Shown in pieces: positions 41,362-60,141 of a stretch of 64,000 nt of DNA. A program made the translations under genes and the position numbers. The notes under the pieces are model-generated. The model worked only from the letters and a program-made list of their open reading frames with translations. It was not told the DNA's origin and made no database searches. The stretch comes from Patescibacteria group bacterium. Its GTDB lineage: Bacteria; Patescibacteriota; Patescibacteriia; Patescibacteriales; UBA12465. The stretch spans positions 83,835 through 147,834 of the forward strand of contig JBAZJV010000001.1 of the NCBI GenBank assembly GCA_041651095.1, written 5' to 3'. The number at the start of each line of letters is the position of its first letter. Position 1 is the first letter of the stretch.

Positions 41362-41410
41362 GGATTGATCGGCACGGAGCGAAAAATTGATAAAATTTGG
41401 GAAATAAAAA

Positions 41411-41437
41411 ATGGACAACCGATTGGCTGTCCATTTT
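41411..41437. terminator. Bidirectional intrinsic terminator after radA
   Basis: ATGGACAACC (41411-41420), loop GATT, GGCTGTCCAT (41425-41434) with one A/C mismatch. It is flanked by an A-run and TTTT. Confidence 0.5.
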
Positions 41438-41450
41438 AAGCGAGAATTTT

Positions 41451-41816
41451 TTATAGAACTAGAGCATAGGCCGGGATTGGTTCGTGTTTTTTGAATCCAA
41501 GTTCAATATTTAAGCTTTTTTGATCTGCAGATATTATTTCATCAAAATTTTTATTGAAAAATTTTTGGCAAACATCATTAGCAGATTTTTTGCTTGTGAA
41601 ACTATAATTGGAGACCAATGTTTCATAAGTTTTTTCTACTTTTTTTTCTTTGCTATCAGGATTAGTTTTAGAAGAGAATAAATGCCCTTCATTACTAACT
41701 CTACCAGCGGTGATGATTACGTCTTCACCGTTCAAAAAAGCTTCAAAATTTTTACTGACCATGTTTTCCTCGCTTTGCCTTGTTAGGCGGTTTTGCTGAC
41801 GAGATAATCTCGTCAA
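41451..41816 (-). CDS. Hypothetical protein in an AT-rich islet
   Basis: 121-aa ORF with AT-rich codon usage unlike its neighbours. Confidence 0.45.
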   Translation of the reverse strand: MTRLSRQQNRLTRQSEENMVSKNFEAFLNGEDVIITAGRVSNEGHLFSSKTNPDSKEKKVEKTYETLVSNYSFTSKKSANDVCQKFFNKNFDEIISADQKSLNIELGFKKHEPIPAYALVL

Positions 41817-41936
41817 GGTTTTAAAAGAAGGTTGATTATGAACTAATAATACTATTTATTATGGATTAAGTCAATGGTATTTGGTGGATAAAGTTAGCTT
41901 ATTTTAGCCTCTAGATATAAAGAATTATCAGTATAC

Positions 41937-41965
41937 TTGACAGTAATTATTAAAGGTGTTATAAT
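41937..41965 (+). promoter_or_regulatory. Consensus sigma70-type promoter
   Basis: TTGACA (41937-41942), N17, TATAAT (41960-41965). Confidence 0.45.
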
Positions 41966-42161
41966 TATTTTATGTTCATTTAAAAGATATTTGGGTTTTT
42001 TGACCTGTTTTGAGGCGATGAGCCTGAAAGCAGATCAAAGAAACTAAACTAAATAGAAACAATACAAAAGGATAACTGATGAAAACTTTAAAGAAGTTCT
42101 TCGCACCGGCAGTTGATTTATTAATAAATCTTTCCATCATCTTCAGGGGGGGGCACTCGTC

Positions 42162-42395
42162 ATGGGCGGGCTTTTCTCAATCTTCATATTAGGGATTGGG
42201 ATATTCTGCTTCGGCTTGTATCTTGGATCGCCTGATGACTATCCTGGAGATTTATTATTATGGATAAGACAACCGTCGGTAATCGTAACTTTGTTAATTT
42301 TATCCGTATTGTTCTTTGTTTTTAAAGGAACGAGGCGGAAACTTTTGACCAAGTTCGAAAATTCTAAATTGGTTAAACGGTTTGAGGCTTTATAG
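42162..42395 (+). CDS. Small membrane protein, possibly the 3' part of a gene interrupted at a G8 tract
   Basis: 77-aa ORF with two TM helices. An upstream 37-codon ORF (42079-42192) reads into the G8 run (42146-42153). One extra G would fuse the two frames. Confidence 0.35.
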   Translation: MGGLFSIFILGIGIFCFGLYLGSPDDYPGDLLLWIRQPSVIVTLLILSVLFFVFKGTRRKLLTKFENSKLVKRFEAL

Positions 42396-42405
42396 AAACA
42401 ATAAG

Positions 42406-42437
42406 GAGTCGTCGACGAATGTCAGCGACTCTTTTTT
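42406..42437. terminator. Intrinsic terminator between convergent genes
   Basis: GAGTCG (42406-42411) pairs with CGACTC (42426-42431), followed by T6. Confidence 0.5.
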
Positions 42438-42451
42438 AATTAATGATTTAT

Positions 42452-44488
42452 CTATTCCAAATGCACCCGGTTTTCCCATTCACCCAGCTTAGTTTTCAGG
42501 AGCGGGTGTTTTTTTAAATCCGGATCGGCCGTCACCAGAGCGGCGGCTTCAGTCTGAGCTTTCTTGATATTGTCATAATCGAACAGCGTGGCGATTTGGA
42601 ATTCCGGGAATCCGCTCTGGCCGGTGCCGTATAATTCGCCGGCGCCGCGCAACCTCAGGTCTATCTTGGCCAAGGCGAAACCGTCCTGGTATTTAGTCAT
42701 CGCCTCCAGGCGGGCCAAGGTCTTGGCGTTGCTGATTTCTTCGCTGGAAGGGAACAGGAAACAATATGATTGGTGTTCACTGCGTCCGACGCGTCCCCGG
42801 AATTGGTGCAGACTGGCCAGGCCGAAACGTTCCGCTCCTTCTATCAGCATCAACGTTGCGTTTGGTACATCCACGCCGACTTCCACTACCGAGGTCGACA
42901 CCATGATCTGCGTCTGGTTGGCCAGGAACTCGGCCATCACCCGTTCTTTTTCTTTGGCGCTCAGGCGGCCGTGCAGCAGGCCGACTTTCAACTCGGGGAA
43001 GATGTCTTGGTCCAGCTTGGCATGTTCGGCTTTAACTGATTTGACGCCCAGGCGGTCCGATTCGTCGATGAGCGGACAGATGACGAAGGCCTGCTGGCCG
43101 CTCTTGATTTGCTGCCGGATGAAATCATAAGCTACTTGGCGGTTAGCCTCGGTGACTACTCTGGTGATGATCGGCTTCCGGCCGGCGGGCCGCTGGTTAA
43201 TGACTGAGAGATCCAGATCACCGTAAATAGTCAGGGCCAGGGAACGGGGAATAGGCGTGGCCGTGAGCGACAGGAAATGCGGCGTTAAGTCATCAAGTCC
43301 GTGGGAATCCAGGACCTTTTGCCGTTGGCTGACGCCGAAACGGTGCTGTTCATCTACTACCGCGAGCGCTAGGTTATCGAATTTCAAGCCTTTCTGGATC
43401 AAAGCATGCGTGCCGATGATGATATCAGCCCGGGTCGCCTCGGCGTCCTTGCGGCCGCCGGTCATTAGCGCGATCCGGAAACCATAACCGGCTAGAAGAT
43501 TGGTAACATAGGCAAAATGCTGCCGGGCCAGGATCTCCGTCGGAGCCATTAATAGTGCCTGCTTCTTATTCAAGGCGACGTTCAATAAGGCCAGAATAAC
43601 GACCAGGGTCTTGCCGCTACCGACATCACCTTCCAAAAGCCGGCTCATCGGCGCCGTTTTTTCCAGATCGCGCAGGATTTCCCAGGCGGCTTGGCGCTGG
43701 GCATCGGTCAGCTTGAAAGGCAGGGTTTTGACGAATTTTTGCGTGGCCGTTTCCTGAAATTTTATGGGCCAGGCTTGGCGCGATTTCAATTCGCGCTTGA
43801 TCATCTGGGCTTTCACCTGGCGCAGGAATAATCCCGTAAAACCGAGCCGCTGCCGCGCGGCGAGCGCCGCCGCTTGGTTAGACGGGAAATGAATCTGGCG
43901 CAGAGCCGTGCCAAGATCCAACAAACCCAGCCGCTTCTTGATGTCCGCCGGCAGCCAATCCGGCTCCTGGTCGGCTAAGGCGATAATCTCTTTTACCAGA
44001 AAGCGGATCTGCTTCTGGGTGAGATTGGCGGTCAGGTGGTAATTGGGAATCAGGCCTTTGGTATGGATGAGATCGGCGGAATATATTTTTTCGATCACCG
44101 GCGAAACCATGGCTAGGCTGCCATAACTCTCGCTGACCCGGCCGGCCAGCGAGACCCGGTCGCCGACCTTATAAGTCCGGGTCAGGAAAGGCTGGTTGAA
44201 CCAGATCGCTTTCAAGGTATCGCTCTCGTCGCTGATGAGCGCTTCCGTCAGGTACATCCGTCGCCGCGGGCTTTTCTTGTTCTGAATAAGCTCAATAGTA
44301 CCGCTCACGTTGGCGGCTTGCCCCTCCCGCAAGTCGGCAATCGCCGCCTGCCTTGAAAAATCTTCGTAACGGAACGGGAAATAAAAAAGCAGGTCGTGGA
44401 CGGTTTCCAGACCCAGCTTTTTTAATAGTTTAGCGGTAGTTTTTCCGACCCGGTAGAGTTCGGTGATCGGCGAAGTGAGAGTAACCAT
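42452..44488 (-). CDS. recG: ATP-dependent DNA helicase RecG
   Basis: Wedge/OB N-terminus, helicase motifs GDVGSGKT, VVDEQHRFG and QFRGRVGR. The start is set at the third in-frame ATG of the tracked ORF (MVTLTSPITELY; start codon at 44486-44488) because the longer ORF overlaps tRNA-Arg. Confidence 0.93.
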   Translation of the reverse strand: MVTLTSPITELYRVGKTTAKLLKKLGLETVHDLLFYFPFRYEDFSRQAAIADLREGQAANVSGTIELIQNKKSPRRRMYLTEALISDESDTLKAIWFNQPFLTRTYKVGDRVSLAGRVSESYGSLAMVSPVIEKIYSADLIHTKGLIPNYHLTANLTQKQIRFLVKEIIALADQEPDWLPADIKKRLGLLDLGTALRQIHFPSNQAAALAARQRLGFTGLFLRQVKAQMIKRELKSRQAWPIKFQETATQKFVKTLPFKLTDAQRQAAWEILRDLEKTAPMSRLLEGDVGSGKTLVVILALLNVALNKKQALLMAPTEILARQHFAYVTNLLAGYGFRIALMTGGRKDAEATRADIIIGTHALIQKGLKFDNLALAVVDEQHRFGVSQRQKVLDSHGLDDLTPHFLSLTATPIPRSLALTIYGDLDLSVINQRPAGRKPIITRVVTEANRQVAYDFIRQQIKSGQQAFVICPLIDESDRLGVKSVKAEHAKLDQDIFPELKVGLLHGRLSAKEKERVMAEFLANQTQIMVSTSVVEVGVDVPNATLMLIEGAERFGLASLHQFRGRVGRSEHQSYCFLFPSSEEISNAKTLARLEAMTKYQDGFALAKIDLRLRGAGELYGTGQSGFPEFQIATLFDYDNIKKAQTEAAALVTADPDLKKHPLLKTKLGEWENRVHLE

Positions 44489-44498
44489 ATGGCAAAGG

Positions 44499-44570
44499 TG
44501 CATCCACCAGGAATCGAACCTGGATTTCAAGCTCCGCAAGCTTGCGTCCTATCCGTTGAACGATGGATGC
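44499..44570 (-). tRNA. tRNA-Arg (anticodon GCG)
   Basis: The minus strand reads GCATCCA-TC-GTTC-AACGGATA-GGAC-G-CAAGC-TTGCGGA-GCTTG-AAAT-CCAGG-TTCGATT-CCTGG-TGGATGC-A. This gives a full cloverleaf of 72 nt, followed by CC. Confidence 0.85.
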
Positions 44571-45221: not shown

Positions 45222-45315
45222 GGAGAGGTGGCTGAGTGGCTGAAAGCGGCAGGTTGCTAACCTGTTATAGGGTGTTAAAGCCCTATCGAGGGTTCGAATC
45301 CCTCCTTCTCCGCCA
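45222..45315 (+). tRNA. tRNA-Ser (anticodon GCU), CCA encoded
   Basis: Acceptor stem GGAGAGG/CTTCTCC, 3-bp D stem GCT/AGC, anticodon arm GCAGG-TTGCTAA-CCTGT, long variable arm TAGGG..CCCTA, T arm GAGGG-TTCGAAT-CCCTC, then G-CCA. Confidence 0.9.
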
Positions 45316-45390
45316 GGACAATTTAGTATCGGATAGACCCATTTAATATAGAGAAATGAGCGACCCGAGTGGTTCGAATCCCATTGTCCT
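45316..45390 (+). pseudogene. Degenerate tRNA-like element, either a pseudo-tRNA or an att remnant
   Basis: A perfect 7-bp acceptor-type pairing joins GGACAAT (45316-45322) and ATTGTCC (45383-45389). CGAGTGGTTCGAATCCC copies the tRNA-Ser T-arm (CGAGGGTTCGAATCCC) with a 1-nt insertion. The D and T stems do not pair, and the anticodon-like stem CATTT/AAATG closes a 9-nt loop. Confidence 0.35.
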
Positions 45391-45475
45391 TGTCAAAAAG
45401 GCGTTCTTTAAAAAGGACGTTTTTTTGTATAATTTTGGATAAGGTGTATAATATAATCAATATATTTTAGTAAAA

Positions 45476-45679
45476 ATGAATATGTCTACAATCAGTAAAA
45501 ATATCCGCAAGCTAAGGGAACGAAAAGGAATATCTCAAGATAGGCTTTCTAAACTTGCTGATATTTCTTTGAACACCATTGCCAAGTTGGAACTTGATGA
45601 CACTCAAAACCCCACTATTGAAACATTGCAGAAAATTGCGAAAGCTTTAGATGTTGGGGTTGAAGACTTAATTAAATAA
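45476..45679 (+). CDS. XRE-family HTH transcriptional regulator, possibly an R-M controller
   Basis: IRKLRERKGISQDRLSKLADISLNTIAKLE is a classic Cro/C1 HTH. 67 aa. It ends 6 nt upstream of hsdM. Confidence 0.8.
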   Translation: MNMSTISKNIRKLRERKGISQDRLSKLADISLNTIAKLELDDTQNPTIETLQKIAKALDVGVEDLIK

Positions 45680-45685
45680 AAACAT

Positions 45686-47272
45686 ATGACAACTAAAGAA
45701 ATGACATTAAATACAACCAAAGAACAAGAACGAGCAGAATTGCATCGTGCTATTTGGCAGATTGCGAATGATTTGCGTGGGAGTATTGATGGTTGGGATT
45801 TCAAGCAGTATGTTTTAGGAATGCTTTTTTATCGTTTTATTAGTGAAAACTTAACTAATTATATCAATGCCGATGAGAGACGATCTGGTAATAAAGATTT
45901 TGACTACTCAACTCTTTCTGACAAAGAAGCAGAATTTGGTCGAGCTGATACCGTGAGAGAAAAGGGATTTTATATTTTACCAAGTGAGTTATTTGTAAAT
46001 GTGTGTAAAAAGGCTCGCAATGACGCAAACCTCAACGAAACATTGGCAAGTGTATTTCGTAGTATTGAAAATTCGGCGAAAGGTTCTGATAGTGAGGATG
46101 ACTTGAGAGGTTTGTTTGATGATCTAGACGTTAACTCCAACAAGTTAGGTAATAGTGTTGAAAAGAGGAACCAAAAATTAGTTAAGCTTTTAGAAGCTAT
46201 TGGTGATCTTCGTTTGGGGAATTATGCTGATAACACTATTGATGCTTTTGGTGATGCCTACGAATTTTTGATGACCATGTATGCTTCAAATTCTGGAAAA
46301 TCTGGCGGTGAATTTTTTACACCACAAGAAGTCAGTCAACTGCTTGCCGAAATTACAACAGTTGGAAAAAAAGAAGTAAATAAAGTTTATGATCCAGCTT
46401 GTGGTTCAGGTTCATTGCTTCTCAAGTTTGCAAAAGTTTTAGGGAAAGAAAATGTTCGCATTGGTTTTTTTGGACAAGAAATCAATCTTACCACTTACAA
46501 CCTGTGCCGTATTAACATGTTTTTGCATGATATAAATTATAATCATTTTGATATTGCACACGGTGACACACTGACTGACCCAAAGCATTGGGATGATGAA
46601 CCATTTGATGCTATTGTCTCAAATCCTCCATATTCTACTAGGTGGGAGGGTGAGGATAATCCAATTTTAATTAACGATCCACGCTTTGCACCAGCAGGTG
46701 TGCTTGCCCCAAAAAGTAAAGCTGATTTAGCTTTCACTATGCATATGTTATCTTGGCTTTCTACGAGTGGCACAGCTGCCATCGTTGAATTTCCGGGTGT
46801 TCTTTACCGTGGCGGAGCAGAGCAAAAAATTCGTAAATATTTGGTAGACAATAATTATGTTGATACGGTTATTCAATTACCAGCGGATTTATTTTTTGGT
46901 GTGACTATAGCCACTTGTATTATTGTTTTGAAAAAGAGCAAAAAAGACAATAAAGTTCTATTTATTGATGCTTCTGCTGAATTTGTTCGTAATGGCAATA
47001 AAAATAAATTAAGTGACTTAAATCGTACAAAAATATTAGGAGCATTTACTGATCGTAAAGATGGTGATTACTTTTCCAAGCTGGTAGATAATAGAATAAT
47101 TGCTGAGAATGATTATAATATTGCCGTTTCAAGTTATGTTGTCGCGGAGGACACTAGAGAAATAATAGATATTAAAGAATTAAACAACAAAATTACTGAA
47201 ATAGTAAAAAGACAAAATGAACTTCGCCAAGCAATTGACGAAATCGTTGCTGATATTGAACAAAGTAAATAA
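45686..47272 (+). CDS. hsdM: Type I restriction-modification system, methyltransferase subunit
   Basis: HsdM_N-like LHRAIWQIANDLRGSIDGWDFKQYVLGMLFYRFISE, motif I YDPACGSGS and motif IV SNPPYS. Confidence 0.93.
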   Translation: MTTKEMTLNTTKEQERAELHRAIWQIANDLRGSIDGWDFKQYVLGMLFYRFISENLTNYINADERRSGNKDFDYSTLSDKEAEFGRADTVREKGFYILPSELFVNVCKKARNDANLNETLASVFRSIENSAKGSDSEDDLRGLFDDLDVNSNKLGNSVEKRNQKLVKLLEAIGDLRLGNYADNTIDAFGDAYEFLMTMYASNSGKSGGEFFTPQEVSQLLAEITTVGKKEVNKVYDPACGSGSLLLKFAKVLGKENVRIGFFGQEINLTTYNLCRINMFLHDINYNHFDIAHGDTLTDPKHWDDEPFDAIVSNPPYSTRWEGEDNPILINDPRFAPAGVLAPKSKADLAFTMHMLSWLSTSGTAAIVEFPGVLYRGGAEQKIRKYLVDNNYVDTVIQLPADLFFGVTIATCIIVLKKSKKDNKVLFIDASAEFVRNGNKNKLSDLNRTKILGAFTDRKDGDYFSKLVDNRIIAENDYNIAVSSYVVAEDTREIIDIKELNNKITEIVKRQNELRQAIDEIVADIEQSK

Positions 47273-47282
47273 AAAAGAAGGT

Positions 47283-48293
47283 ATGGAAAAAGATTTAATA
47301 AAAAATGAAATCAATATTGAATTACATTATAATTTCATTGATAGTAATAGCCATTCAATAAATTTTCATACCAGAAATATTTGTGCACTGGCTCAGGTTG
47401 AACTCATATCTTATATCATAAGAACATTGTATCCTGATGAAAATTTTGAAATATTATCACTGCCACCTCAGGAGGGATCTTTCAAGGATTTAACCGTTGT
47501 TAAATTTTTAAATAAAAATCAGGGTGTAATTTTAACAGTTGGTACTTTATTTACTGTTTTATTATTTAATAGTCAAGTAAGGGTTAATAATACAACTGCA
47601 GATTTTAACACTTTAGAAATTGTAGAGAAATGTAAAAATTTTGATGTAGATGATGAAAAAATTAAAAAAATTGAGGATATTTGTAAGTCGTACTATCCTA
47701 AAAAACAAAAAAATATCTTCTATGAATCAGTTATAGCGGATGCAAGTGTTACTAGTATAAAACCAACCATATCAGAGAATGAAAACATTTTTGAAAAAGA
47801 AATCAATAAGAGTGATTTTGAAAATTATCTTGAGGATATACCCAAAGAAAAAGAATTTTTAAAAACCGATTTGTCTGGGCATATACAGTTATCTCAACCA
47901 TTCATCGATAAACAACAGCAGTATGGTAGAGGTGTCGCTTGGAAAGGAACGTATTATGGTGATGATATCTTTGATGAAAATAATGAGCTTATTATAGAAG
48001 ACGGGGAATATATATTTTTTTACATGCAGGATGACGAGTATAAAGAGCAAATCCTAAAGCAAGAAATTTCTTTTACTAGTGGTGATAATATAGGTGTTAT
48101 TTTCGATGTTAGTCGTTATTATGATTATTTTAATGATAAATATGGTAAGCCAAGATTATATATAAAAAGAGTTGTATCTCATAATGATAATTTAGTACAA
48201 CATAAAAAAGACTTGGCATTAAAAAATGAAAAAAGAAAATTTGAGAAAAAAAATAAAAATCAAAGATCATTATTCGAAATTGCTCAAGAATAA
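47283..48293 (+). CDS. Hypothetical protein embedded between hsdM and hsdS
   Basis: 336 aa counted from the ATG at 47283. The tracked 47217 start overlaps hsdM. No motif recognised; the sequence is Asn/Lys/Asp-rich. Confidence 0.65.
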   Translation: MEKDLIKNEINIELHYNFIDSNSHSINFHTRNICALAQVELISYIIRTLYPDENFEILSLPPQEGSFKDLTVVKFLNKNQGVILTVGTLFTVLLFNSQVRVNNTTADFNTLEIVEKCKNFDVDDEKIKKIEDICKSYYPKKQKNIFYESVIADASVTSIKPTISENENIFEKEINKSDFENYLEDIPKEKEFLKTDLSGHIQLSQPFIDKQQQYGRGVAWKGTYYGDDIFDENNELIIEDGEYIFFYMQDDEYKEQILKQEISFTSGDNIGVIFDVSRYYDYFNDKYGKPRLYIKRVVSHNDNLVQHKKDLALKNEKRKFEKKNKNQRSLFEIAQE

Positions 48294-48294
48294 T

Positions 48295-49497
48295 ATGATT
48301 AAACATCAAAATAAAATTGAAAAGTTAATATTGGAATTATGCCCAAATGGCGTTAAGTATTTTACTGTTGGGGAAATCTGTGAGATAAATCGTGGCAGAG
48401 TTATGTCGAAAGACTACCTTCGAGAAAATGTTGGCGAATATCCTGTGTACTCTTCTCAGACGGCAAATGAGGGTGTTTTTGGTTATATTAAAACCTATGA
48501 TTACGATGGAGAATACGTGACCTGGACGACTGATGGTGCAAATGCAGGATCAGTGTTTTATCATAATGGAAAATTTAGTATTACAAATGTTTGTGGTTTA
48601 TTGAAACCAAAGACAAGTAATTTAAATGTTAAATATTTACTGTATAGTTTAAGCATCATAGCAAAATCTTATGTAAATGCTGGCATGGGTAATCCAAAGT
48701 TAATGAGTAATGTAATGGCAAGAATTAAAATTCCTGTTCCACCTCTTACAATCCAAGAAGAAATTGTAAAAATTCTTAATAGTTTTACAGAGCTGGAAGC
48801 AGAGCTGGAAGCAGAGCTGGAAGCAGAGCTGGAAGCAAGAAAGAAACAGTATAATCATTATAAAGACGAGTTACTGAATATTGAGGGTGCAGAAAATAAA
48901 GTTTTGGGAGATATAGGAACCATGATTAGAGGAAACGGATTACAAAAGAAAGATTTTATGGAAACAGGAGTCGGGTGTATTCACTATGGCCAAATATACA
49001 CCTATTACGGAACTTTTACAGATAAAACTAAATCATTCGTATCACCAGAATTAGCAAAAAAATTAAAGAAAGCCCAAAAAGGAGATGTAATAATTACCAA
49101 TACGAGTGAAAATCTCGAAGATGTGGGAAAAGCTGTCGTTTGGTGCGGTGAGAATGAAATTGTAACAGGTGGACATGCAACAATTTTCAAACCTCAAAAA
49201 GTTACTGGAAAATATTTTGCATATTATACACAAACAAAAATGTTTTTTGATCAAAAGAAAAAATATGCAAAAGGTACAAAAGTGATAGATGTTTCAGCTA
49301 CAGATATGAAAAAAATTAAAATACCCGTTCCACCACTCGCCGAACAAGAACGAATCGTCTCGATTTTGGATAAATTTGATGCACTTGTTAACAATATTTC
49401 AATTGGTTTGCCTGCCGAACTTAATGCACGCAGACAACAATATGAATATTACAGAAACAAACTTCTAACATTTAAGGAATATGCCAACGAAAAATAA
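48295..49497 (+). CDS. hsdS: Type I restriction-modification system, specificity subunit
   Basis: Two target-recognition halves (VGEICEINRGRVMSKDY and LGDIGTMIRGNGLQKKDF). Conserved IPVPPL..EQ..IV..L helices follow each half. There is a central (ELEA)x4 coiled-coil. The start is set at the ATG 1 nt after the upstream stop. Confidence 0.9.
   Translation: MIKHQNKIEKLILELCPNGVKYFTVGEICEINRGRVMSKDYLRENVGEYPVYSSQTANEGVFGYIKTYDYDGEYVTWTTDGANAGSVFYHNGKFSITNVCGLLKPKTSNLNVKYLLYSLSIIAKSYVNAGMGNPKLMSNVMARIKIPVPPLTIQEEIVKILNSFTELEAELEAELEAELEARKKQYNHYKDELLNIEGAENKVLGDIGTMIRGNGLQKKDFMETGVGCIHYGQIYTYYGTFTDKTKSFVSPELAKKLKKAQKGDVIITNTSENLEDVGKAVVWCGENEIVTGGHATIFKPQKVTGKYFAYYTQTKMFFDQKKKYAKGTKVIDVSATDMKKIKIPVPPLAEQERIVSILDKFDALVNNISIGLPAELNARRQQYEYYRNKLLTFKEYANEK
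48789..48836 (+). repeat. Four perfect tandem copies of the 12-bp unit AGAGCTGGAAGC inside hsdS
   Basis: Read directly from the sequence. It encodes ELEAELEAELEAELEA in the central conserved region between the two TRDs. Confidence 0.95.
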
Positions 49498-52400
49498 ATA
49501 TAATTTAGTAGCTGAGAATTCACAAAGCACAGTCGTGGCTGAATACACTCCAGATAAAAAACGGATTGCCCATTATCAAAGTGAAGCCGAACTGGAACGT
49601 GCTTTTATAAAACAGCTTGAGACGCAGGCTTACGAATATATAGAGATAACATCGGAAGATGATTTGGTTTTGAATTTGCGTAAGCAGATAGAAAAACTTA
49701 ATAATTTTGAATTTTCGGACAAGGAATGGGAACATTTTTTTGTAAGTGAGTTGGCGAACTCTAATCAAGGCATTGAAGAAAAAACAACAACAATACAAGA
49801 AGACTATATAAAAAATTTAGTTCGTGACGATGGTTCAATAAAAAATATTTATCTTATAAAAAAAGATAATATTCATGACAATAATTTGCAGGTTATTAAT
49901 CAATATGCGACAGAAGACGGTCAACGTTCTAATCGTTATGATGTAACAGTGCTTATTAATGGATTACCTTTGGTTCATATTGAACTTAAGCGTCGTGGCG
50001 TGGCTATTCAAGAGGCTTTTAATCAGATTAATCGCTATCAAAGAGAGAGTTTTTGGTCTGCTTCTGGTCTTTTTGAGTATATACAGCTGTTTGTTATTTC
50101 CAACGGGACACATACAAAATATTATAGTAATACAACACGATCACAACATATTAAGGAATCGAGCGAAGGTGCGGTCAAAAAAGGTAAAAGAACAAGTAAC
50201 AGTTTTGAGTTTACTAGTTGGTGGGCAGATGCTACAAATAAACCAATAATAGATTTGATGGATTTTGGTAAAACTTTTTTCGCTAAACATACTCTTTTGA
50301 ATATTTTAACTCGTTATTGTGTTTTTACAACCGAGCGACTCCTTCTCGTGATGCGTCCTTATCAGATTGTGGCAACCGAAAGAATATTAAATCGCATTGA
50401 AGTTAGTACAAATTATAAAAAGTTAGGTACTGTAGAAGCTGGCGGATATGTTTGGCATACGACAGGCTCTGGAAAAACCTTGACTAGTTTTAAAACTGCA
50501 CAACTGGCAAGCAAATTATCATACATTGATAAAGTTGTTTTTGTTGTCGATCGCAAAGATTTGGATTATCAAACAATGAAAGAATATGATAAATTTGAAA
50601 AAGGAGCGGCGAACAGCAATACCAGCACCACGGTATTAAAAAAACAATTGGAAGACTCAAACGCAAGAATCATTATTACGACAATTCAAAAATTAGACCG
50701 ATTTATTGATAAGAATAAGGGGCATAGTATATTTGATGGACATGTGGTAATTATATTTGACGAATGCCATCGTTCTCAATTTGGTGAGATGCATGGGGCC
50801 ATTACCAAAGCATTCAACAATTATCATATCTTTGGATTTACTGGCACGCCAATTTTTGCCGTGAATTCTTCTTCTGGTGGAAGAATTGATTTTAAAACAA
50901 CCGAACAAGCTTTTGGTGATAAATTGCATACCTATACCATTGTAGATGCGATTGCAGACAAAAATGTTTTACCATTTAAGGTGGACTATATTTCTACTGT
51001 TAAAGAAGCGGAAGATATTGAGGATAAAAAAGTTAGTGACATTGATCGTGAGGCAATATTATCAGCACCAGAACGCATAACAAATATTGTTAACTACATT
51101 CGTGAACATTTTGATCAAAAGACAAAGCGTAATAGTTTCTATAAATTAAAAGAGCGACGATTAGCTGGTTTTAATTCCATATTTGCTGTTTCCTCAATTG
51201 AAGTTGCAAAAAAATATTATGCCGAATTTAATAAACAGTTTGCTGATCTGCCAAGTGATAAGCGTCTTAAGGTAGCTCTAATTTATAGTTTTGGTGTAAA
51301 TGATGAAGATGCAGATGGGATGATAGATGAAAATCTTGATGATACAAGCGGTTTAGATGCCAGTTCCAGAGACTTCTTGGATAGAGCCATCGTTGATTAT
51401 AATAAGATGTTTGGTACTTCTTATGATATTTCATCAGACAAATTCCAAAATTATTATAAAGATGTTAGTCAACGAGTAAAAGATCGGGAGATTGATGTTC
51501 TGGTCGTAGTGAATATGTTTTTGACTGGATTTGATGCTACTACCCTTAATACTTTGTGGGTTGATAAAAATTTAAGACTACACGGCCTACTTCAGGCATA
51601 TTCTCGTACTAATCGTATTTTGAATAGTGTAAAAACCTTTGGTAATATCGTATGTTTTCGTAACCTAGAAAAAGCAACAAATGAATCTATTTCATTATTT
51701 GGTGATAAGGAAGCGAGCGGTATCGTTCTTTTGAAATCGTATTCTGAATATTATAATGGCTATAAAGATGGCAACAAGGAAGTTCGTGGTTATGCAAGCT
51801 TAGTGGCTGAATTATTAGAAAAGTTTCCAGTAGGTCAAAGAATAGATAGTGAACAAGCACAAAAAGATTTTATTAAACTTTATGGCGGAATATTGCGAGT
51901 AAGAAATATTTTAACTACTTTTGATGAATTTGTTGGAAATGAAATATTAACCGAGCGTGATATACAGGATTATCATAGTATGTACATTGACCTGTATAAC
52001 GAATTCCGCAAAGCCGAGGAAAATGAAAAAGAAAATGTTAATGATGACATTGTCTTTGAAATGGAACTTATTAAACAAGTTGATATCAATATTGATTATA
52101 TATTAGGTCTCATTAAAAAATACCACGAAGATCACACAAAGAATAAAGAGCTTTTACTTGATATCAACAAGGCCATTGATTCTAGTGTCGAACTTAGAAA
52201 TAAAAAAGACCTCATTAATCAATTTATTACTTCTCTTGATATAAAGTCTGTAGTTGATGAAGACTGGCAAAGGTTTATAAATGAAAAGAAGATCGAAGAG
52301 TTGGAACAAATTATTGAGAATGAAAATCTTGACCGAGATGCGACCTACACTTTTGTAAAAAATGCTTTTCGTGATGGAGGCGTTGCAACCACTGGCACCG

Positions 52401-52534
52401 CTATTACAAAAGTTCTGCCACCTGTATCACGTTTTTCTCCAACAGGCGAACGTTCACAGAAACGTGAAAGTGTTCTGGGTAAATTAACAAGTTTCTTTGA
52501 AAGATTTTTTGATATTTCTGGTGGCAATTTATAA
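49481..52534 (+). CDS. hsdR: Type I restriction enzyme, R (endonuclease/translocase) subunit
   Basis: HsdR_N-like N-terminus (YQSEAELERAFIKQLETQAYEYI). Nuclease-core-like segment YDVTVLINGLPLVHIELKR. Helicase motifs HTTGSGKTLT and FDECHRSQ. 1,017 aa. Confidence 0.93.
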   Translation: MPTKNKYNLVAENSQSTVVAEYTPDKKRIAHYQSEAELERAFIKQLETQAYEYIEITSEDDLVLNLRKQIEKLNNFEFSDKEWEHFFVSELANSNQGIEEKTTTIQEDYIKNLVRDDGSIKNIYLIKKDNIHDNNLQVINQYATEDGQRSNRYDVTVLINGLPLVHIELKRRGVAIQEAFNQINRYQRESFWSASGLFEYIQLFVISNGTHTKYYSNTTRSQHIKESSEGAVKKGKRTSNSFEFTSWWADATNKPIIDLMDFGKTFFAKHTLLNILTRYCVFTTERLLLVMRPYQIVATERILNRIEVSTNYKKLGTVEAGGYVWHTTGSGKTLTSFKTAQLASKLSYIDKVVFVVDRKDLDYQTMKEYDKFEKGAANSNTSTTVLKKQLEDSNARIIITTIQKLDRFIDKNKGHSIFDGHVVIIFDECHRSQFGEMHGAITKAFNNYHIFGFTGTPIFAVNSSSGGRIDFKTTEQAFGDKLHTYTIVDAIADKNVLPFKVDYISTVKEAEDIEDKKVSDIDREAILSAPERITNIVNYIREHFDQKTKRNSFYKLKERRLAGFNSIFAVSSIEVAKKYYAEFNKQFADLPSDKRLKVALIYSFGVNDEDADGMIDENLDDTSGLDASSRDFLDRAIVDYNKMFGTSYDISSDKFQNYYKDVSQRVKDREIDVLVVVNMFLTGFDATTLNTLWVDKNLRLHGLLQAYSRTNRILNSVKTFGNIVCFRNLEKATNESISLFGDKEASGIVLLKSYSEYYNGYKDGNKEVRGYASLVAELLEKFPVGQRIDSEQAQKDFIKLYGGILRVRNILTTFDEFVGNEILTERDIQDYHSMYIDLYNEFRKAEENEKENVNDDIVFEMELIKQVDINIDYILGLIKKYHEDHTKNKELLLDINKAIDSSVELRNKKDLINQFITSLDIKSVVDEDWQRFINEKKIEELEQIIENENLDRDATYTFVKNAFRDGGVATTGTAITKVLPPVSRFSPTGERSQKRESVLGKLTSFFERFFDISGGNL

Positions 52535-52544
52535 TTTTATTATA

Positions 52545-52577
52545 AAAGCGTCAACGATATTATGTTGGCGTTTTTTT
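52545..52577. terminator. Intrinsic terminator shared by hsdR (+) and the recombinase gene (-)
   Basis: AAAA, CGTCAAC (52549-52555), 8-nt loop, GTTGGCG (52564-52570, one G-U pair), then T7. Confidence 0.55.
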
Positions 52578-53922
52578 ATTCTTCCAACAATGTTAAGACT
52601 TTATCTTGATACTTTATTCTTGACCTTAAGTTTCCAAGCAACTCTCTCTTCTCACTTACTGATCCCTCTTTCAAGATATACTTCGCATAGTTTCTAATGT
52701 CAGTCTCTTTTGGGGCTTTCACCTTATCAGTGCTACCCAGTACTGATCTTTGGAATATATTAAATCTTGAAATTTCATCCTCTAATCTTTGTCGCATGCC
52801 AAGTTCGTTGATATTTACTTTATCTAATATTTTCAGCAGTTCAGTAATAAGTTCTTCTTCCCGAATGTATTTATTTTTACAATTTCTATCTCTGGCTCTT
52901 GAGCAAGAGTAGTAAATATACCTCGCATGCGTTCCATCTTTAAGTTGTTTGTATTTTTCTTCGGCAGATATACCACTTCCACAATATCCGCAGGTAAACA
53001 ATTTAGTGAAGGCGAATTCTTTATTTTCTCTCACTATTTGATCACGTTTCAACTGAGCTTTGGCTTTTTCAAATAACTCTTGCTTTATAATTGGTTCATG
53101 TTTACCGGTATACCAATTTCCACTATCCTTTGGGTGTTCGAATACTCCATAATAAAAAGGGTTATCTAGTATTCTATAAATTCCACTTAAAGTTAGTGGC
53201 TTATTGCCCCTCGTATAGAAGTTAATTTCATGTTTAAGCCAGTTGTATATTTTTCGTCCTGAATAATGTTCGTAGGCAACTTTTTCAAACATTTTCTTAA
53301 TTACTGGAGACCTAAGCGGATCAATAATTATCTGACATTTTTTATCCATCCTATTTTGATTCAAATATCCAAGTGGTGCCACGCCTGGCCACAAGCCCAT
53401 CTCGACTCTTGTGCGTAATCCTCGTTTTACATTGATGCCTCTGTTGTCATTTTCTAGTTTGGCTTGCGATCCTAAAATCATGAGTAAAAACTTTTCATTT
53501 GGATTGTTGCTGAATTTCTGTCCGTAAGTTCGTATTTCTTGAAGTTTGCCACTATCCATTAAATCCACAACTTTACCGAGATCGCCAGCATTTCTTGAAA
53601 TTCGGTCAGGTGCCCAAGTTAGAATTCCATCAAATTTACCTTGTCTTAAATCTTCGATTAATTCGTTAAAGATTGGTCGTTGGCCAGTCTCTTTGGCTGA
53701 GTGTGATTCTCTCTTAATATCTGTCACTAAGAGTCCTTCTTTTTCTGCCAGCTGAAGCATTTCTTTCACCTGCGAGTCTATTGAAAGCACTTGGCGTTCC
53801 TCGCTCTCGGTTGATTTGCGAGCGTAAAGACAGTATTTAACAGGAGAAGGAGCTAAAACCTCTCTGGACTTAGTGGCCGTCATTTGGCCCACAGCCAGGC
53901 CATAATTTGCGTTATACGTCAT
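52576..53922 (-). CDS. Large serine recombinase (resolvase catalytic domain, recombinase domain and zinc ribbon)
   Basis: CLYARKSTESEERQVLSIDSQ carries the catalytic Ser context. Also RISRN, the recombinase-domain pattern LGYL..., and the zinc-ribbon CGYCGS...YYSC. 448 aa. Confidence 0.9.
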   Translation of the reverse strand: MTYNANYGLAVGQMTATKSREVLAPSPVKYCLYARKSTESEERQVLSIDSQVKEMLQLAEKEGLLVTDIKRESHSAKETGQRPIFNELIEDLRQGKFDGILTWAPDRISRNAGDLGKVVDLMDSGKLQEIRTYGQKFSNNPNEKFLLMILGSQAKLENDNRGINVKRGLRTRVEMGLWPGVAPLGYLNQNRMDKKCQIIIDPLRSPVIKKMFEKVAYEHYSGRKIYNWLKHEINFYTRGNKPLTLSGIYRILDNPFYYGVFEHPKDSGNWYTGKHEPIIKQELFEKAKAQLKRDQIVRENKEFAFTKLFTCGYCGSGISAEEKYKQLKDGTHARYIYYSCSRARDRNCKNKYIREEELITELLKILDKVNINELGMRQRLEDEISRFNIFQRSVLGSTDKVKAPKETDIRNYAKYILKEGSVSEKRELLGNLRSRIKYQDKVLTLLEE

Positions 53923-54025
53923 ATATTTGTGTTATTTCTCTTAACACATTAATGACGCAATGGCTGTGGGGCGTCCAGAGTGGTTTTAGCCCTACCTGTT
54001 GGTAACTTTTACCTCTCTAAATTCT

Positions 54026-54253
54026 CTAATTTACTTTACGCCAATGACCATCTCGAGTTAATTCAAGAGCCGGTCTTTGCATATCTTCTATTTCCCAATC
54101 ATCCCACCCACGATTACCAGATCCACGATTCCACCCGCCATATAATCCACTGGTAAAATTTGGTCCTTGATCCCTACCGCCAAACAATCTACCACTTAGT
54201 AATTGTTTTAGGATTTTTGTGGGAATAAAGTTTTTATCTACGTTAAATAACAT
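54026..54253 (-). CDS. Small hypothetical protein
   Basis: 75-aa ORF between the recombinase and TerL genes on the same strand. Gly/Trp/Arg-rich. Confidence 0.4.
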   Translation of the reverse strand: MLFNVDKNFIPTKILKQLLSGRLFGGRDQGPNFTSGLYGGWNRGSGNRGWDDWEIEDMQRPALELTRDGHWRKVN

Positions 54254-54277
54254 ATGCGTAAAATTAATAATAAATAA

Positions 54278-55837
54278 TTAACGATGGTACGGGTAAAACC
54301 CACCCTTTCCTAGTTGATAGGAACGTCCCCATCGAGTACCGCCATGTAACATCTTGTACAAAGCTCGTTCGCCTGGATCTGCATCCCAAGAAAATTTCGC
54401 CTCAACTGCTCCTTCAAATAGTTCATCCTCTTTATCTCGTCTGATGACTTCCATTAGCCCCATTGAAAAAGCGTCAGCCAAATCATGATACTTCTCAGTA
54501 TCAAAGTTTACGATTTGATTAATCAGCTCTTCACAACCTTTGCTCGGAAAAAATACCACTCCAGATTGAACCAAATGACTGACAACTTTCAATCGGCTTC
54601 GCTTGTCCTGTCCGTAGACCGCAAAGCCAGTCACGGGATAATTAAAGCGTTCCAACTCCTGCACAAAACCTTTCTGCATACCAACATCCTCAACCACTAA
54701 ATCAGTGGCATGACCTTTGCCTAAGGCGTCAGATAAAGATTTGGCGTGTTCAATTGTTTCTTTCATACTCAATCGGTCGTTTACTGGATTGGGCAATACC
54801 AATATTTTCAACCTGGCACCAGAATTGTACACTCGGAATGAAACCATGGCGGTTTTACACGCATTTTCGTCTTTGGAAATAGCAGGATCAATTGAAGTTA
54901 GTGTTAAACTTCTACGGTCTGTATTTCCAATAACGTCATACATGTCATCATATTTTTTAATCCATTCTGGCAAGATAACTCGACCTTTATTAGATATTAT
55001 CTTGAGCATGTATTCACGATGCCAAGCATACTCATCAAAAATCTGTCTTTTCTTTTTTTCCACTGCTTCCATGTTTGGATACATTCCTGGCCAAGTAATT
55101 TTGCCTTTTTCATCAACCAGCGGAATTTCCATAAATACAGCATCCAATTCTTTATTTTGTATTTTTCTTTTCAATCTCATGAGCATTGAATCCTCGTGCA
55201 ATAAGTTACCAATGCAAATAACCTTAGTGTTAAGTTGCCCAGCTGGTAAAACTTCGCTGGCAATCCAGTTGAATATTTTATCTCTGCCTTCCATAGTTTT
55301 TACACTTTCCAAATCCTCAATATCGTCAAGCAGAATTAAATCTGGACGATATTTGCCGTGACGAATACCACGAATAGTTTGCTCCATTGAAACAGCGATG
55401 ATCTTGGCGTCGTACCAAGGTAGATACAAAGTATACGACCCTAAATCACTATCCTGTTCCTTAAATGGTCCCATATCTTTGCATAGAGGGACATTACCCT
55501 CTAATTCCTTTTTCAAGTTATCAATCATGAGTTTGGTTTGACGCTGTGTTCTACCAACAATCACCACTAATTTCTTTTGCAATTTGCCCATTATTGCCCA
55601 CAACGGAAAGGAGGTTGTCATAATCGTGGATTTTGACGATCCTCTAAAACTCACGATTACCGCCATACTAATATTTTCATCCTCTGTAATACCAAAGAAG
55701 CGTTTGTGAAACGGAGCGGCTGGACAGTCAATATAATGTGGAAAGTAAAGGTTAAAAAACCAATGATGTGATTCACGAGCTAAGGCGACCCTTAATTTTC
55801 TTTCATCAAGAATGTTTTGCAAGTATTCGTTAGTCAT
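54278..55837 (-). CDS. terL: Phage terminase large subunit-like protein
   Basis: Walker A-like FRGSSKST and Walker B-like DLILLDDIED. The C-terminal nuclease-like region contains acidic residues. 519 aa. It is preceded by an overlapping HTH small-subunit-like gene. Confidence 0.7.
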   Translation of the reverse strand: MTNEYLQNILDERKLRVALARESHHWFFNLYFPHYIDCPAAPFHKRFFGITEDENISMAVIVSFRGSSKSTIMTTSFPLWAIMGKLQKKLVVIVGRTQRQTKLMIDNLKKELEGNVPLCKDMGPFKEQDSDLGSYTLYLPWYDAKIIAVSMEQTIRGIRHGKYRPDLILLDDIEDLESVKTMEGRDKIFNWIASEVLPAGQLNTKVICIGNLLHEDSMLMRLKRKIQNKELDAVFMEIPLVDEKGKITWPGMYPNMEAVEKKKRQIFDEYAWHREYMLKIISNKGRVILPEWIKKYDDMYDVIGNTDRRSLTLTSIDPAISKDENACKTAMVSFRVYNSGARLKILVLPNPVNDRLSMKETIEHAKSLSDALGKGHATDLVVEDVGMQKGFVQELERFNYPVTGFAVYGQDKRSRLKVVSHLVQSGVVFFPSKGCEELINQIVNFDTEKYHDLADAFSMGLMEVIRRDKEDELFEGAVEAKFSWDADPGERALYKMLHGGTRWGRSYQLGKGGFYPYHR

Positions 55838-56253
55838 AAATTTTCTTTATTATCTTGATGAATTAAACCCGAGAGAGTTAATGCTTTTTCAATTAACGCT
55901 TTTTGATCATCTGTCAGTGGTTCATTTTCTACACGCAATTTTCCATTTAGTTCAATTTTGGTAGCATAACGAGTAGAATGCGAGCGTAGCCAAAATAGGA
56001 CGGCACGAAGATTGCGATCACGAATGGCCTCAACCAATCTACTCTCAGCTAAATCTGATACAAAATCCGTTCCTTCTGCCACAGATTCGTCAACGGCTTT
56101 GGAAAACTCCTTGTCTTGTTCTTTCCAGCGGTAAAAAGTACTCCTACCAATATTCATTTTTTCGCAAGCCACTTGGATTATTGGTGTTTTTTTAAGTTGT
56201 TCGATAAGAAGAGATTTTATCCTTTCTTGATTTTGTTGTTCTTGACTATCCAT
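55834..56253 (-). CDS. HTH protein, terminase small-subunit-like
   Basis: CEKMNIGRSTFYRWKEQDKEFSKAVDES is an HTH typical of TerS-like proteins. There is a 4-nt overlap with terL. Confidence 0.5.
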   Translation of the reverse strand: MDSQEQQNQERIKSLLIEQLKKTPIIQVACEKMNIGRSTFYRWKEQDKEFSKAVDESVAEGTDFVSDLAESRLVEAIRDRNLRAVLFWLRSHSTRYATKIELNGKLRVENEPLTDDQKALIEKALTLSGLIHQDNKENL

Positions 56254-56257
56254 AAAA

Positions 56258-57040
56258 TTAGTTGTTAATTATGTTAGCTTTTTTGCCTGTTAATTTTTCC
56301 CAACGGAAAATTGTGCTGGCACAGTGTATCGGTTCCAATTCCACACCAATGCACTTTCTTTTAGTTTGTTCGCAAGCAAGTAAGCATGTACCACCACCAA
56401 GGAATCCGTCAAAAACTGTGTCCCCAATATTCGTGCTGTTCAAAATTAAGTGACGAATAAGTGCAACTGGTTTTGATGTGGGGTGGAAGGGGCTACTTTG
56501 TGGTTTCGGGTAGAATAATAATGATTTATCTTTGCTTTTCATAAACTTGTGCGTGCCATACCAACCATAGGCAATAAGTTCATACATAGGAAGGTAATCT
56601 TTTCTGCCAATTACTGCTGAATTTTTGATCCAGATCAGCATTTGCGAAAAGTTAACTCCAGCCTGCTTCATACCTTCACGCAACGCAAATATCATTTTGT
56701 CGCAGTTAAACAGATAAAAACTATTTTTACTCGCCAAGTATGGTTTTATTACTTCAATCCAATCTTTCGTAAATTTGATGTATTCATCATCGGATTGAAT
56801 GTGGTCGTTTTGTATAACTGTTCCATTAGCAAGTTTTTGTTTGAATCCTTGTTTACTTTCAACAATTGCCACACCGTAAGGTGGGTCACTGTTTACACAA
56901 TCAATTTTGCGACCGTGTAAAAATTTGTTCATCATTTCTTTATTGCGACAATCGCCACAAAGGAGGAGGTGTTCTCCCAGCTCAATAACCGTGCCGAGCT
57001 TAATTAAGCTTGATAACTTTTTGATTTGCGTATTGTTCAT
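56258..57040 (-). CDS. Orphan DNA methyltransferase (N6-A/N4-C, beta-class order)
   Basis: Motif IV VNSDPPYG precedes motif I FDGFLGGGT. Confidence 0.85.
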   Translation of the reverse strand: MNNTQIKKLSSLIKLGTVIELGEHLLLCGDCRNKEMMNKFLHGRKIDCVNSDPPYGVAIVESKQGFKQKLANGTVIQNDHIQSDDEYIKFTKDWIEVIKPYLASKNSFYLFNCDKMIFALREGMKQAGVNFSQMLIWIKNSAVIGRKDYLPMYELIAYGWYGTHKFMKSKDKSLLFYPKPQSSPFHPTSKPVALIRHLILNSTNIGDTVFDGFLGGGTCLLACEQTKRKCIGVELEPIHCASTIFRWEKLTGKKANIINN

Positions 57041-58268: not shown

Positions 58269-58371
58269 ATTGTTGTAAATTAAAAATGGATTATGTGTTC
58301 TACATAATCCATTATAAATTGAGTGCAACAGCTTGGCACGATTAAGGGGGCCGTTTATCGAGCTTTTTGGC

Positions 58372-59235: not shown

Positions 59236-59306
59236 ACATGGATATTATACCGCCAAAAGCAAAATCAAAAAAGACCAGTTATACCCTGATCTTTTTTGCC
59301 TTATCA

Positions 59307-59738
59307 TTATCCTCGTGGATGTGCCTGTCTGTATTTATCCATCAGCCACTGAAAGCTTTTATTACTAACGGATATTGGGTATCCAGTTTCATCAAAATAT
59401 ACCGAAATGGAAATCATTTTCTTGTTGGCCAACGAGAAAATTAAATAAATCAAACCTGGCAATATCCATAGCAACAACAGTATGACCAAAACGACCCCAT
59501 TCAATCCACGCCACTCTTTGTTTAAAATGATGTAGTTTTGTTTGTAGTTTTTAGAAACTACATTGTATGACGGGTATTCCTGTTTTACAAAGTCTATAAA
59601 GCTATCGAACCGGTCATCCCCAGTTTCATTACCAGAGGATGAAGTAGCTTTACCTGCCTGGTTCAGGAATTCGCCACAGTGTTTACACTTTTTGGCATCT
59701 TCTTGCACCTCTTCGGCGCAGAATGGACACTTCTTCAT
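59307..59738 (-). CDS. Zinc-ribbon membrane protein
   Basis: The N-terminal CPFCAEEVQEDAKKCKHCGEF is a C-x2-C...C-x2-C ribbon. TM helix VVLVILLLLWILPGLIYLIF. Confidence 0.65.
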   Translation of the reverse strand: MKKCPFCAEEVQEDAKKCKHCGEFLNQAGKATSSSGNETGDDRFDSFIDFVKQEYPSYNVVSKNYKQNYIILNKEWRGLNGVVLVILLLLWILPGLIYLIFSLANKKMISISVYFDETGYPISVSNKSFQWLMDKYRQAHPRG

Positions 59739-60078: not shown

Positions 60079-60107
60079 TTGACTAAGCGGTCTGGAAGGG
60101 GTAAAAT
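60079..60107 (+). promoter_or_regulatory. Candidate promoter of the Gabija-like operon
   Basis: TTGACT (60079-60084), N17, TAAAAT (60102-60107), 35 nt upstream of the ATG at 60142. Confidence 0.45.
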
Positions 60108-60141
60108 TAAACTGTGTTGTTCAGATAACCTATTCAAATTT

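Follow-up and report, generated by a model that had tools for sequence, protein, structure and literature searches.

A PDC-S42 phage-defence candidate inside a Type IC-like restriction-modification operon of a patescibacterium: predicted OB fold and candidate sliding-clamp motif

The 64,000-nucleotide (nt) stretch of a Patescibacteria group bacterium analysed here (the window; contig JBAZJV010000001.1 of assembly GCA_041651095.1) carries on its plus strand, at 45476-52534, a tightly packed unit of five genes: an XRE-family helix-turn-helix (HTH) gene, hsdM, an open reading frame (ORF) of 336 amino acids (aa), hsdS and hsdR (Table 1). This gene order, proposed in an earlier sequence-only reading of the same DNA, is borne out by Pfam and PADLOC matches, and so are the tight or overlapping junctions, with gaps of 6 nt from the XRE gene to hsdM and 10 nt from hsdM to the embedded ORF, a TAA stop of that ORF at 48291-48293 separated by one base from the hsdS ATG at 48295, and a 17-nt overlap between hsdS and hsdR. 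The 1-nt stop-start junction may couple the translation of HsdS to that of the embedded gene. HsdM and HsdS are each full length by Pfam, and HsdR combines HSDR_N, SWI2_SNF2, T1R_D3-like and EcoR124_C domains; the surrounding system, known here from its genes, is therefore Type IC-like restriction-modification (R-M) by sequence criteria. Our analysis places the embedded gene in the PADLOC family PDC-S42 by profile match and leads us to suggest, tentatively, that its product is a DNA-binding defence module that docks on the DnaN sliding clamp.

The embedded ORF is a genuine and separate gene. A mechanical ORF list puts its start at 47217, inside hsdM; all homologues start at an ATG equivalent to 47283, the position that the sequence-only reading had picked. 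Compared with five homologues by the Nei-Gojobori method, the gene has a ratio of nonsynonymous to synonymous substitution rates (dN/dS) of 0.08-0.11, and it is under strong purifying selection. We found 49 close homologues of ~335 aa at 52-95% identity, all annotated as hypothetical and every named source belonging to Patescibacteria, and a profile search of 1.84 billion cluster representatives extended the family to 183 members, nearly all of 300-345 aa and matched end to end; two profile searches of a word-indexed protein database returned mostly the same close clade. The G+C content (GC) of the gene, 26.7% as against 33.5-35.2% for the hsd genes, fits a separate acquisition. That there might be no separate gene here, the ORF being a chance reading frame or a frameshifted piece of hsdM or hsdS, has only the AT-rich composition in its favour and is almost certainly wrong, refuted as it is by the low dN/dS, the 183 representatives and the confident fold described below. 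The embedded protein has no similarity to the window's HsdS and HsdM (BLASTP E of at least 0.6), and since both Hsd proteins are also full length, the gene is not a domain split off from either; the frameshift explanation was rejected on the same grounds. Both doubts that the sequence-only reading had attached to the ORF, that it might not be conserved as coding and that it might be such a split-off domain, are thereby settled in favour of a gene.

Recognisable motifs are as scarce as that reading had reported. No Pfam, NCBIfam or PHROG family matches the embedded protein above cut-off, no Walker A, HEPN or HUH motif is present in it, and no Walker A occurs in any of 96 relatives; matches below cut-off to IFRD, LAPAL_fam, phrog_30281 and Csx1 were disregarded. 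Sequence searches of the PDB, with the single protein and with the profile, gave no match. A tblastn search with the embedded protein gave no match among 50,697 phage and 72,556 plasmid records, and a Bacteroidota relative matched among such records only Vibrio chromids and one Parabacteroides replicon. On these results a phage or plasmid origin of the gene was rejected.

By profile comparison, the embedded gene is a divergent, Patescibacteria-clade member of PDC-S42. Its product matches the family model (PDLC05016) at E 3.8e-19, with residues 8-331 aligned to model positions 7-317 of 320, the same model is matched by 96 of 96 diverse aligned relatives (best E 1.1e-120), and no other PADLOC model matches the embedded protein convincingly. 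Its identity to most of the family is 20-30%, and its own clade is made up of Patescibacteria only. The PDCs are 145 'phage defence candidates' whose genes were collected from within BREX, DISARM and Type I R-M loci (Payne et al. 2024; bioRxiv 10.1101/2024.01.29.577857); Payne, Hughes, Fineran and Jackson tested only seven Hma-embedded systems in that study, and a 2026 survey says that most of the PDCs belonging to the core defensome still await validation (PMC12988326). The name PDC-S42 was found neither in the papers nor in the source-preprint supplements searched. The embedded protein shares with the family a full-length hidden Markov model match, a single gene of ~320 aa and embedding in a Type I R-M operon, and differs in what can be said of it: PDC-S42 comes with no described fold, motif or tested phenotype, and the reading as an oligonucleotide/oligosaccharide-binding (OB) fold with a clamp motif is new here. 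What was already known, then, is the family as a listed candidate; what we add is the census of close-clade contexts, the confident fold and the clamp-motif hypothesis, which give a family that was formerly only a name a testable hypothesis. The sequence-only reading had called the gene a candidate second-line defence factor of unknown type. The first half of that description agrees with membership in a listed defence candidate; the second was overstated, for the family had been catalogued by the same guilt-by-embedding logic, and the earlier inference thus re-derives a published prediction (bioRxiv 10.1101/2024.01.29.577857).

Our census of the close clade covered 16 distinct loci, the window included. 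In ten of them (the window, L010, L008/9, L005/11, L007/16, L013, L018, L029, L030 and L032/33) the gene occupies the hsdM-hsdS junction of one and the same Type IC operon lineage, either directly 5' of hsdS or one ~180-aa ORF away. Across these embedded loci nucleotide identity is 71-81% for the gene and 72-90% for hsdM and hsdR; L005, as one example, is 76.5% identical to the window in hsdM, 73.8% in the embedded gene and 75.4% in hsdR. Because the gene diverges in step with hsdM and hsdR, the alignments suggest that the cassette is inherited as a unit. Sister operons hold further cargo, namely a ThsB-TIR plus ThsA-Macro pair and a Bro-N gene in L005 (5600-6990 and 9234-10079) and AAA_15/21, AAA_13 and Fic genes in L007 (5149-6961 and 9208-11217). 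Since this cargo sits at both the hsdM-hsdS and the hsdS-hsdR junction, both junctions of the operon lineage are cargo slots and the operon is a docking site for defence genes. Genomes of Patescibacteria have yielded very few defence systems (PMC12366544), and the locus illustrates a Type IC operon serving as such a site in ultra-small bacteria, with the embedded gene here and Thoeris and ATPase genes in the sister operons. Outside the close clade, a 36%-identical relative (L035) begins 2 nt after hsdS and is an independent Type I association. Recurrent embedding in hsd operons, which the sequence-only reading had named as something to look for, is thus found in the window, nine other close loci and L035, and Type I R-M loci are among the settings by which the PDCs are defined.

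The remaining six close loci (L001, L002, L003, L006, L031 and L034) have no hsd genes. The gene adjoins an HpaII R-M system and Mrr-nSTAND3 in L001; an EcoRI-type methylase gene with GmrSD, SocA/Panacea, Fic and PD-(D/E)xK genes in L003; and serine recombinases in L031 and L034. In L006 it lies directly 3' of a reverse transcriptase gene on a Prim-Pol element. The hsd genes are also absent near most of the distant relatives examined. In Bacteroidota we observe a triad made up of a PDC-S42 homologue, a gene of ~400 aa that we could not assign and a GNAT/ASCH gene of ~300 aa, inserted in glycosyltransferase-rich loci (L021, 7001-10098; L024 and L025, 4600-10051); in L024 and L025 it adjoins an AAA_15 plus DUF4435 pair that we take to be PARIS-like. 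This triad may be a three-gene variant of the system. An obligate pairing of the PDC-S42 protein with HsdS was considered and rejected, as the gene that follows the Bacteroidota homologue (399-404 aa) has no Methylase_S domain, and no partner gene is conserved across the family. We conclude that the gene is autonomous single-gene cargo, neither an Hsd subunit nor a PrrC relative, and that its link to R-M and defence is strong within the close clade and not universal in the family. The worry that homologues would turn up mainly outside defence contexts therefore does not hold for the close clade, which is mostly defence-linked, and does hold for many of the distant relatives.

These contexts bear directly on the analogy with PrrC that the sequence-only reading had drawn. 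PrrC, whose latency depends on EcoprrI, is likewise encoded by an additional gene inside a Type IC hsd operon and is regarded as back-up defence; prrC lies between hsdS and hsdR, the embedded gene between hsdM and hsdS. Likeness ends at the domains, for PrrC joins an ABC-type NTPase to an anticodon nuclease and the embedded protein has no such domains or motifs. It ends also at the setting, for PrrC is almost always embedded in Type I R-M (bioRxiv 10.1101/2024.01.29.577857) and the gene studied here often occurs without hsd genes. A PrrC-like guard, which the Hsd complex would keep latent and which would become active once the Type I enzyme is disabled by an anti-restriction factor of a phage, would account for a gene that lies 5' of hsdS directly or one small ORF away, for the suggestion of translational coupling in the 1-nt spacer, for co-divergence with hsdM and hsdR and for the second, independent hsdS pairing in L035. 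We nevertheless judge such a guard quite unlikely, given the six hsd-free close loci and the hsd-free surroundings of most distant relatives examined, a Bacteroidota neighbour that is not HsdS, and a protein that shows no NTPase or nuclease domain and matches no PADLOC model convincingly except PDC-S42. The analogy with PrrC accordingly does not hold.

The same hsd-free contexts, together with the unrelated cargo in the same slot of orthologous operons, weigh against an accessory of the R-M system at the replication fork, one that would tether the M2S methyltransferase to new DNA or shield DNA from HsdR and would so serve a mobile R-M cassette in restriction alleviation or in establishment. 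Such a role would draw on the clamp motif described below, on the hsdM-hsdS position in a mobile island beside a tRNA-Ser gene and on expression that may be coupled to HsdS translation. The protein has no similarity to known anti-restriction proteins in the Pfam, PADLOC, NCBIfam and PHROG libraries, and we rate this explanation below the guard, as improbable.

The predicted structure gives the embedded protein a definite shape. AlphaFold2 (AF2) reached a predicted local distance difference test score (pLDDT) of 66.6 with 24 close sequences, and 89.6 with a predicted template-modelling score (pTM) of 0.81 when given the 96-member alignment. In the N-terminal part the model has β 9-18, α 28-49, β 55-60, β 67-75, α 80-95, three helices within 103-152 and β 156-171, and residues ~9-171 are read as a ferredoxin-like α/β domain with a helical insertion. 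DSSP assigns to the C-terminal part β 190-205, 220-225 and 243-248, α 251-258, and β 269-278 and 291-300, so that residues ~190-300 are predicted to form an OB fold of five strands with a helix between strands 3 and 4; a basic helix (305-323) and a coil tail follow. The protein is probably soluble and three-part. Conserved residues include an N-terminal polar cluster in the β1-loop-α1 region (E13, H15, Y16, H24, R31, N32 and C34) and, in the OB strands, W220, which is invariant, with G222, Y224, F246, D250, F264 and V297. The only consistent Foldseek matches are the OB folds of the single-stranded DNA-binding proteins Rim1 (yeast) and SsbB (Streptomyces), with probabilities of 0.8-0.97 and target TM scores of 0.55-0.57. 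Foldseek searches of the PDB with the poor and the good model returned nothing at E < 0.008, and a weak viral match to an uncharacterised protein was rejected at a TM score of only ~0.2.

Helix 80-95 deserves separate comment. The most hydrophobic 19-residue window falls at this alignment position in 94 of the 96 relatives, and here the sequence varies with its hydrophobicity kept (mean Kyte-Doolittle 1.76). Such constancy of position would suit an abortive-infection effector that inserts the helix into the membrane. On the Hessa scale, however, just 14 of the 96 members give an insertion free energy below zero, and apolar runs have a median of 13.5 residues; the single-body AF2 model (pTM 0.81) places the helix confidently (block pLDDT 92 and 87), at the position of the second helix of a ferredoxin-like fold. 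A transmembrane anchor was downgraded on this marginal score and confident placement, and we hold a membrane-acting effector to be very unlikely. From its position in the fold, the helix would instead be the buried second helix of the ferredoxin-like domain.

The C-terminus carries a motif that extends across the family. The last 15 residues of the embedded protein, KNKNQRSLFEIAQE, contain QRSLF (Q327 to F331), which matches the canonical peptide by which proteins bind the β sliding clamp, with clamp binding itself our inference from that match; the published consensus is 'QL[S/D]LF or more generally QxxLF', often C-terminal (PMC12309361). In the 96-member alignment Q327 is conserved at 85%, L330 at 76% and F331 at 85%, as against a family mean column identity of 27%. 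A strict QxxLF falls within the final 25 residues in 100 of the 183 full-length members and, outside the close Patescibacteria clade, in 57 of 136, where shuffled tails lead to an expectation of 1.1; the 40,470 residues outside the tails contain only four copies. Tails of every clade carry the motif, 0-12 residues from the C-terminus, and its family consensus is Q-L-S/N/D-L-F followed by acidic residues (Q-L-S/N/D-L-F-D-D). Examples are NQRSLFEIAQE in the window, NQASLF at the very C-terminus in L035, AQLELFESA in Vibrio, KQLTLDLFG in Parabacteroides distasonis, QQLSLFNDDDFK in Segatella and NQLSLFDDDDFK in Phocaeicola. AF2 models residues 324-336 as coil with a block confidence of 73, lower than that of the adjoining blocks, and the motif is thus predicted to lie in an exposed, flexible segment.

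Taking context, fold and motif together, we tentatively favour, at somewhat less than an even chance, a clamp-docked, DNA-binding module of defence that acts on replicating invader DNA as a second line, independently of the Hsd proteins. We hypothesize that the C-terminal tail would dock the protein on the DnaN clamp and that the OB fold and basic helix would bind DNA at replication forks; the protein could then act as an anti-phage or anti-mobile-element factor against invaders whose DNA is replicated with the host's clamp. It might act by blocking use of the clamp, or on exposed single-stranded DNA through its N-terminal domain, and its target could be replication of the invader DNA or, as an abortive response, that of the host cell. 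The Hsd proteins would not be needed for this action. A defence role for the embedded protein is itself an inference. A more far-reaching proposal, which we consider unlikely at present, is that PDC-S42 as a whole is an unrecognised form of single-protein immunity in which an OB-fold binder rides on the β clamp through its QLSLF-type peptide and stops the replication of DNA that has escaped restriction. If this were true, such stopping of escaped DNA would account for the presence of the gene within R-M operons, and the defence family would be common to Patescibacteria, Bacteroidota and Proteobacteria. Should the hypothesis of an OB fold with a clamp motif be confirmed, the replication clamp would join the host hubs on which immunity genes draw; its refutation would caution that embedding in an R-M operon does not always mark a defence gene.

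Several observations count against a clamp-docked defence module. The case for clamp binding is a short motif, no catalytic motif was recognised in the protein, the Rim1 and SsbB matches fall below significance (E 0.015-0.05), Foldseek found no full-length structural relative, and the conserved hydrophobicity of helix 80-95 could indicate action at the membrane. Our literature search found no experimental test of any PDC-S42 member. Genomic context also offers exceptions: one close relative (L002) sits among housekeeping genes, two Vibrio chromid copies stand alone among transport and regulatory genes, and many distant relatives have non-defence surroundings. In P. distasonis the homologue begins 6 nt after a DUF2148 gene, which itself follows a KamA-family gene (L028, 6194-9897; L037-L108), an arrangement that is fixed across 73 contigs from human-gut metagenomes, none of which has hsd genes in its vicinity.

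Part of this evidence would also suit a protein that has nothing to do with defence: an accessory of replication, repair or element maintenance, in which an OB-fold DNA binder is recruited by DnaN and travels in the hsd operon as a passenger. QxxLF and an OB fold are features typical of proteins in replication and repair, the Vibrio, P. distasonis and Chryseobacterium relatives stand alone among housekeeping genes (the Chryseobacterium copy among small unannotated ORFs and ordinary genes), some close relatives adjoin serine recombinases, a reverse transcriptase or a Prim-Pol element, and the clamp is also used by mobile-element proteins such as IS transposases (PMC4549789, PMC3971601). What tells against such a passenger is the patchy distribution of the gene, the weight of defence contexts in the close clade (10 of the 16 loci are hsd operons and another two are other defence islands), a slot shared with Thoeris and ATPase defence genes, and retention in the operon under purifying selection over ~25-30% nucleotide divergence. 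We regard it as rather unlikely and yet as the foremost of the alternatives, which in order of weight are the non-defence factor, the PrrC-like guard, the R-M fork accessory and the membrane effector.

Like the known β-clamp binders (PolC, other polymerases and Hda; PMC12309361, PMC5397184), the embedded protein has a QxxLF at a flexible C-terminus, with QLSLF as the PDC-S42 consensus; unlike them, it has no polymerase, ATPase or other known catalytic domain. LdgA and DdgA are single-gene defences almost restricted to Patescibacteria that were recovered by functional selection and validated in E. coli (PMC12366544). The embedded protein resembles them in description, being restricted to Patescibacteria in its clade, encoded by a single gene and free of recognisable domains. 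No paper that turned up in our search connects a clamp-binding motif with defence against phages. The SocB toxin of SocAB binds DnaN and thereby blocks replication; by mechanism, it would offer a precedent for a small accessory protein that halts replication through clamp occupancy. It differs in that no conserved antitoxin-like partner lies beside the embedded gene.

Table 1. Features of the embedded-gene operon and its surroundings, in window coordinates
Feature	Position	Strand	Evidence
XRE-family HTH gene	45476-45679	+	Pfam HTH_3 E 5.7e-16; PADLOC capH E 9.5e-13, Control_protein E 6.6e-9
hsdM, Type I methyltransferase subunit	45686-47272	+	N6_Mtase E 4.3e-114, HsdM_N E 1.2e-19, PADLOC MTase_I E 6.5e-131
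Embedded 336-aa gene	47283-48293	+	PADLOC PDC-S42 family
Codons for Q327-R-S-L-F331, predicted β-clamp-binding motif	48261-48275	+	
hsdS, specificity subunit, two target-recognition domains	48295-49497	+	Methylase_S E 1.3e-52, two matched stretches
hsdR, Type IC-like restriction/translocase subunit	49481-52534	+	HSDR_N, SWI2_SNF2, ResIII, T1R_D3-like, EcoR124_C (E 2e-69); PADLOC REase_I 1169 bits
tRNA-Ser(GCT), left edge of the operon's low-GC island	45222-45315	+	ARAGORN, Rfam
Terminator-like hairpin upstream of the operon	45394-45427	+	
Two TGTATAAT extended -10-like boxes, putative operon promoter region	45426-45433 and 45445-45452	+	Region conserved in L010
Terminator-like hairpin closing the operon	52544-52575	+	
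Large serine recombinase of the operon's island	52576-53922	-	Resolvase, Recombinase, Zn_ribbon_recom; syntenic in L008, 90% nt identity

Upstream of the operon, the region at 45394-45452 would have promoter function, a putative assignment. Within hsdS, the plus strand has a further terminator-like match at 48339-48353, a weak one of 5 pairs. The target-recognition domains of HsdS vary among the orthologous operons, while its central conserved region and its C-terminal one agree. In the former, Tandem Repeats Finder (TRF) detects a perfect 12-bp tandem repeat of 4.2 copies (48788-48837, plus strand) that encodes (LEAE)4; orthologous operons have three copies in L010, L008, L005 and L018 and four in the window, L007 and L013. 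The repeat resembles the TAEL repeat of EcoR124I and EcoR124II, between which a change in the repeat alters the spacer length. With EcoR124I-type systems the operon thus shares the EcoR124_C domain of HsdR and a short central tandem repeat in HsdS whose copy number varies among orthologues; it differs from them in its extra HTH gene and its embedded cargo gene.

The XRE gene has the sequence features of an R-M controller (C) protein, a small XRE-type HTH that is co-oriented with the R-M genes and lies just 5' of them. Where a C protein would have a palindromic operator (C-box) before its own gene, we find only a short AT-rich inverted repeat (45447-45469) and the two TGTATAAT direct repeats. 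The gene looks like one for a C protein, with a putative operator and a putative controller role. Because the 91%-identical L010 cassette lacks the ATG at 45476, the true start is likely the ATG common to both, at 45482 (MSTISK...), which gives a 65-aa product. Among the orthologous operons only the window and L010 have the XRE gene; in others its position is taken by a RadC or HTH_17 gene. RadC-family genes also occur within a few kb of a PDC-S42 homologue in four otherwise different loci (L001, 10122-11789; L005, 3119-3790; L013, 1416-2117; L023, 10038-10748), in L005 and L013 directly upstream of hsdM.

The operon lies in an island whose left edge is the tRNA-Ser(GCT) gene, at which GC drops from ~55% to ~33%. 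Homology to the 91%-identical L010 cassette starts in the T-arm of this tRNA, at ~45284, and a second T-arm-like remnant, GAGTGGTTCGAATCCCATTGTCC, at 45366-45388 is conserved in L010. The L010 cassette itself adjoins a tRNA-Ser(GGA) gene with unrelated upstream flanks (L010, 5944-6130), and L007 follows a tRNA-Ser(CGA) gene (L007, 2733-2820). Because the cassettes abut different tRNA-Ser genes, the alignments suggest an element that integrates at tRNA-Ser 3' ends. Downstream within the window no second copy of the tRNA-Ser 3' end, and hence no right-hand repeat, was found.

Beyond the operon, the minus strand at 52576-59738 encodes mobile or phage-like genes: the serine recombinase, a terminase-like protein (Terminase_6C), an HTH_Tnp_1_2 protein, an N6_N4 methylase, a ParB-N6_N4 methylase fusion, a 287-aa ORF of no assigned function and a zinc-ribbon protein. 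A Gabija-like pair follows on the plus strand in the same low-GC region (60079-63698), composed of a 625-aa AAA_15/AAA_21 protein with an OLD-like TOPRIM domain and a 579-aa UvrD-type helicase. To the left of the island, another, short low-GC stretch (~33%, 41400-42450) is flanked by a RadA-like gene (40018-41361) and by a 695-aa helicase-like ORF (42452-44539) that we took by eye to be RecG; it contains only small ORFs, one of 121 aa on the minus strand and a hydrophobic one of 77 aa on the plus strand. At the left end of the window, a single plus-strand ORF of 2601 aa extends from 82 to 7887.

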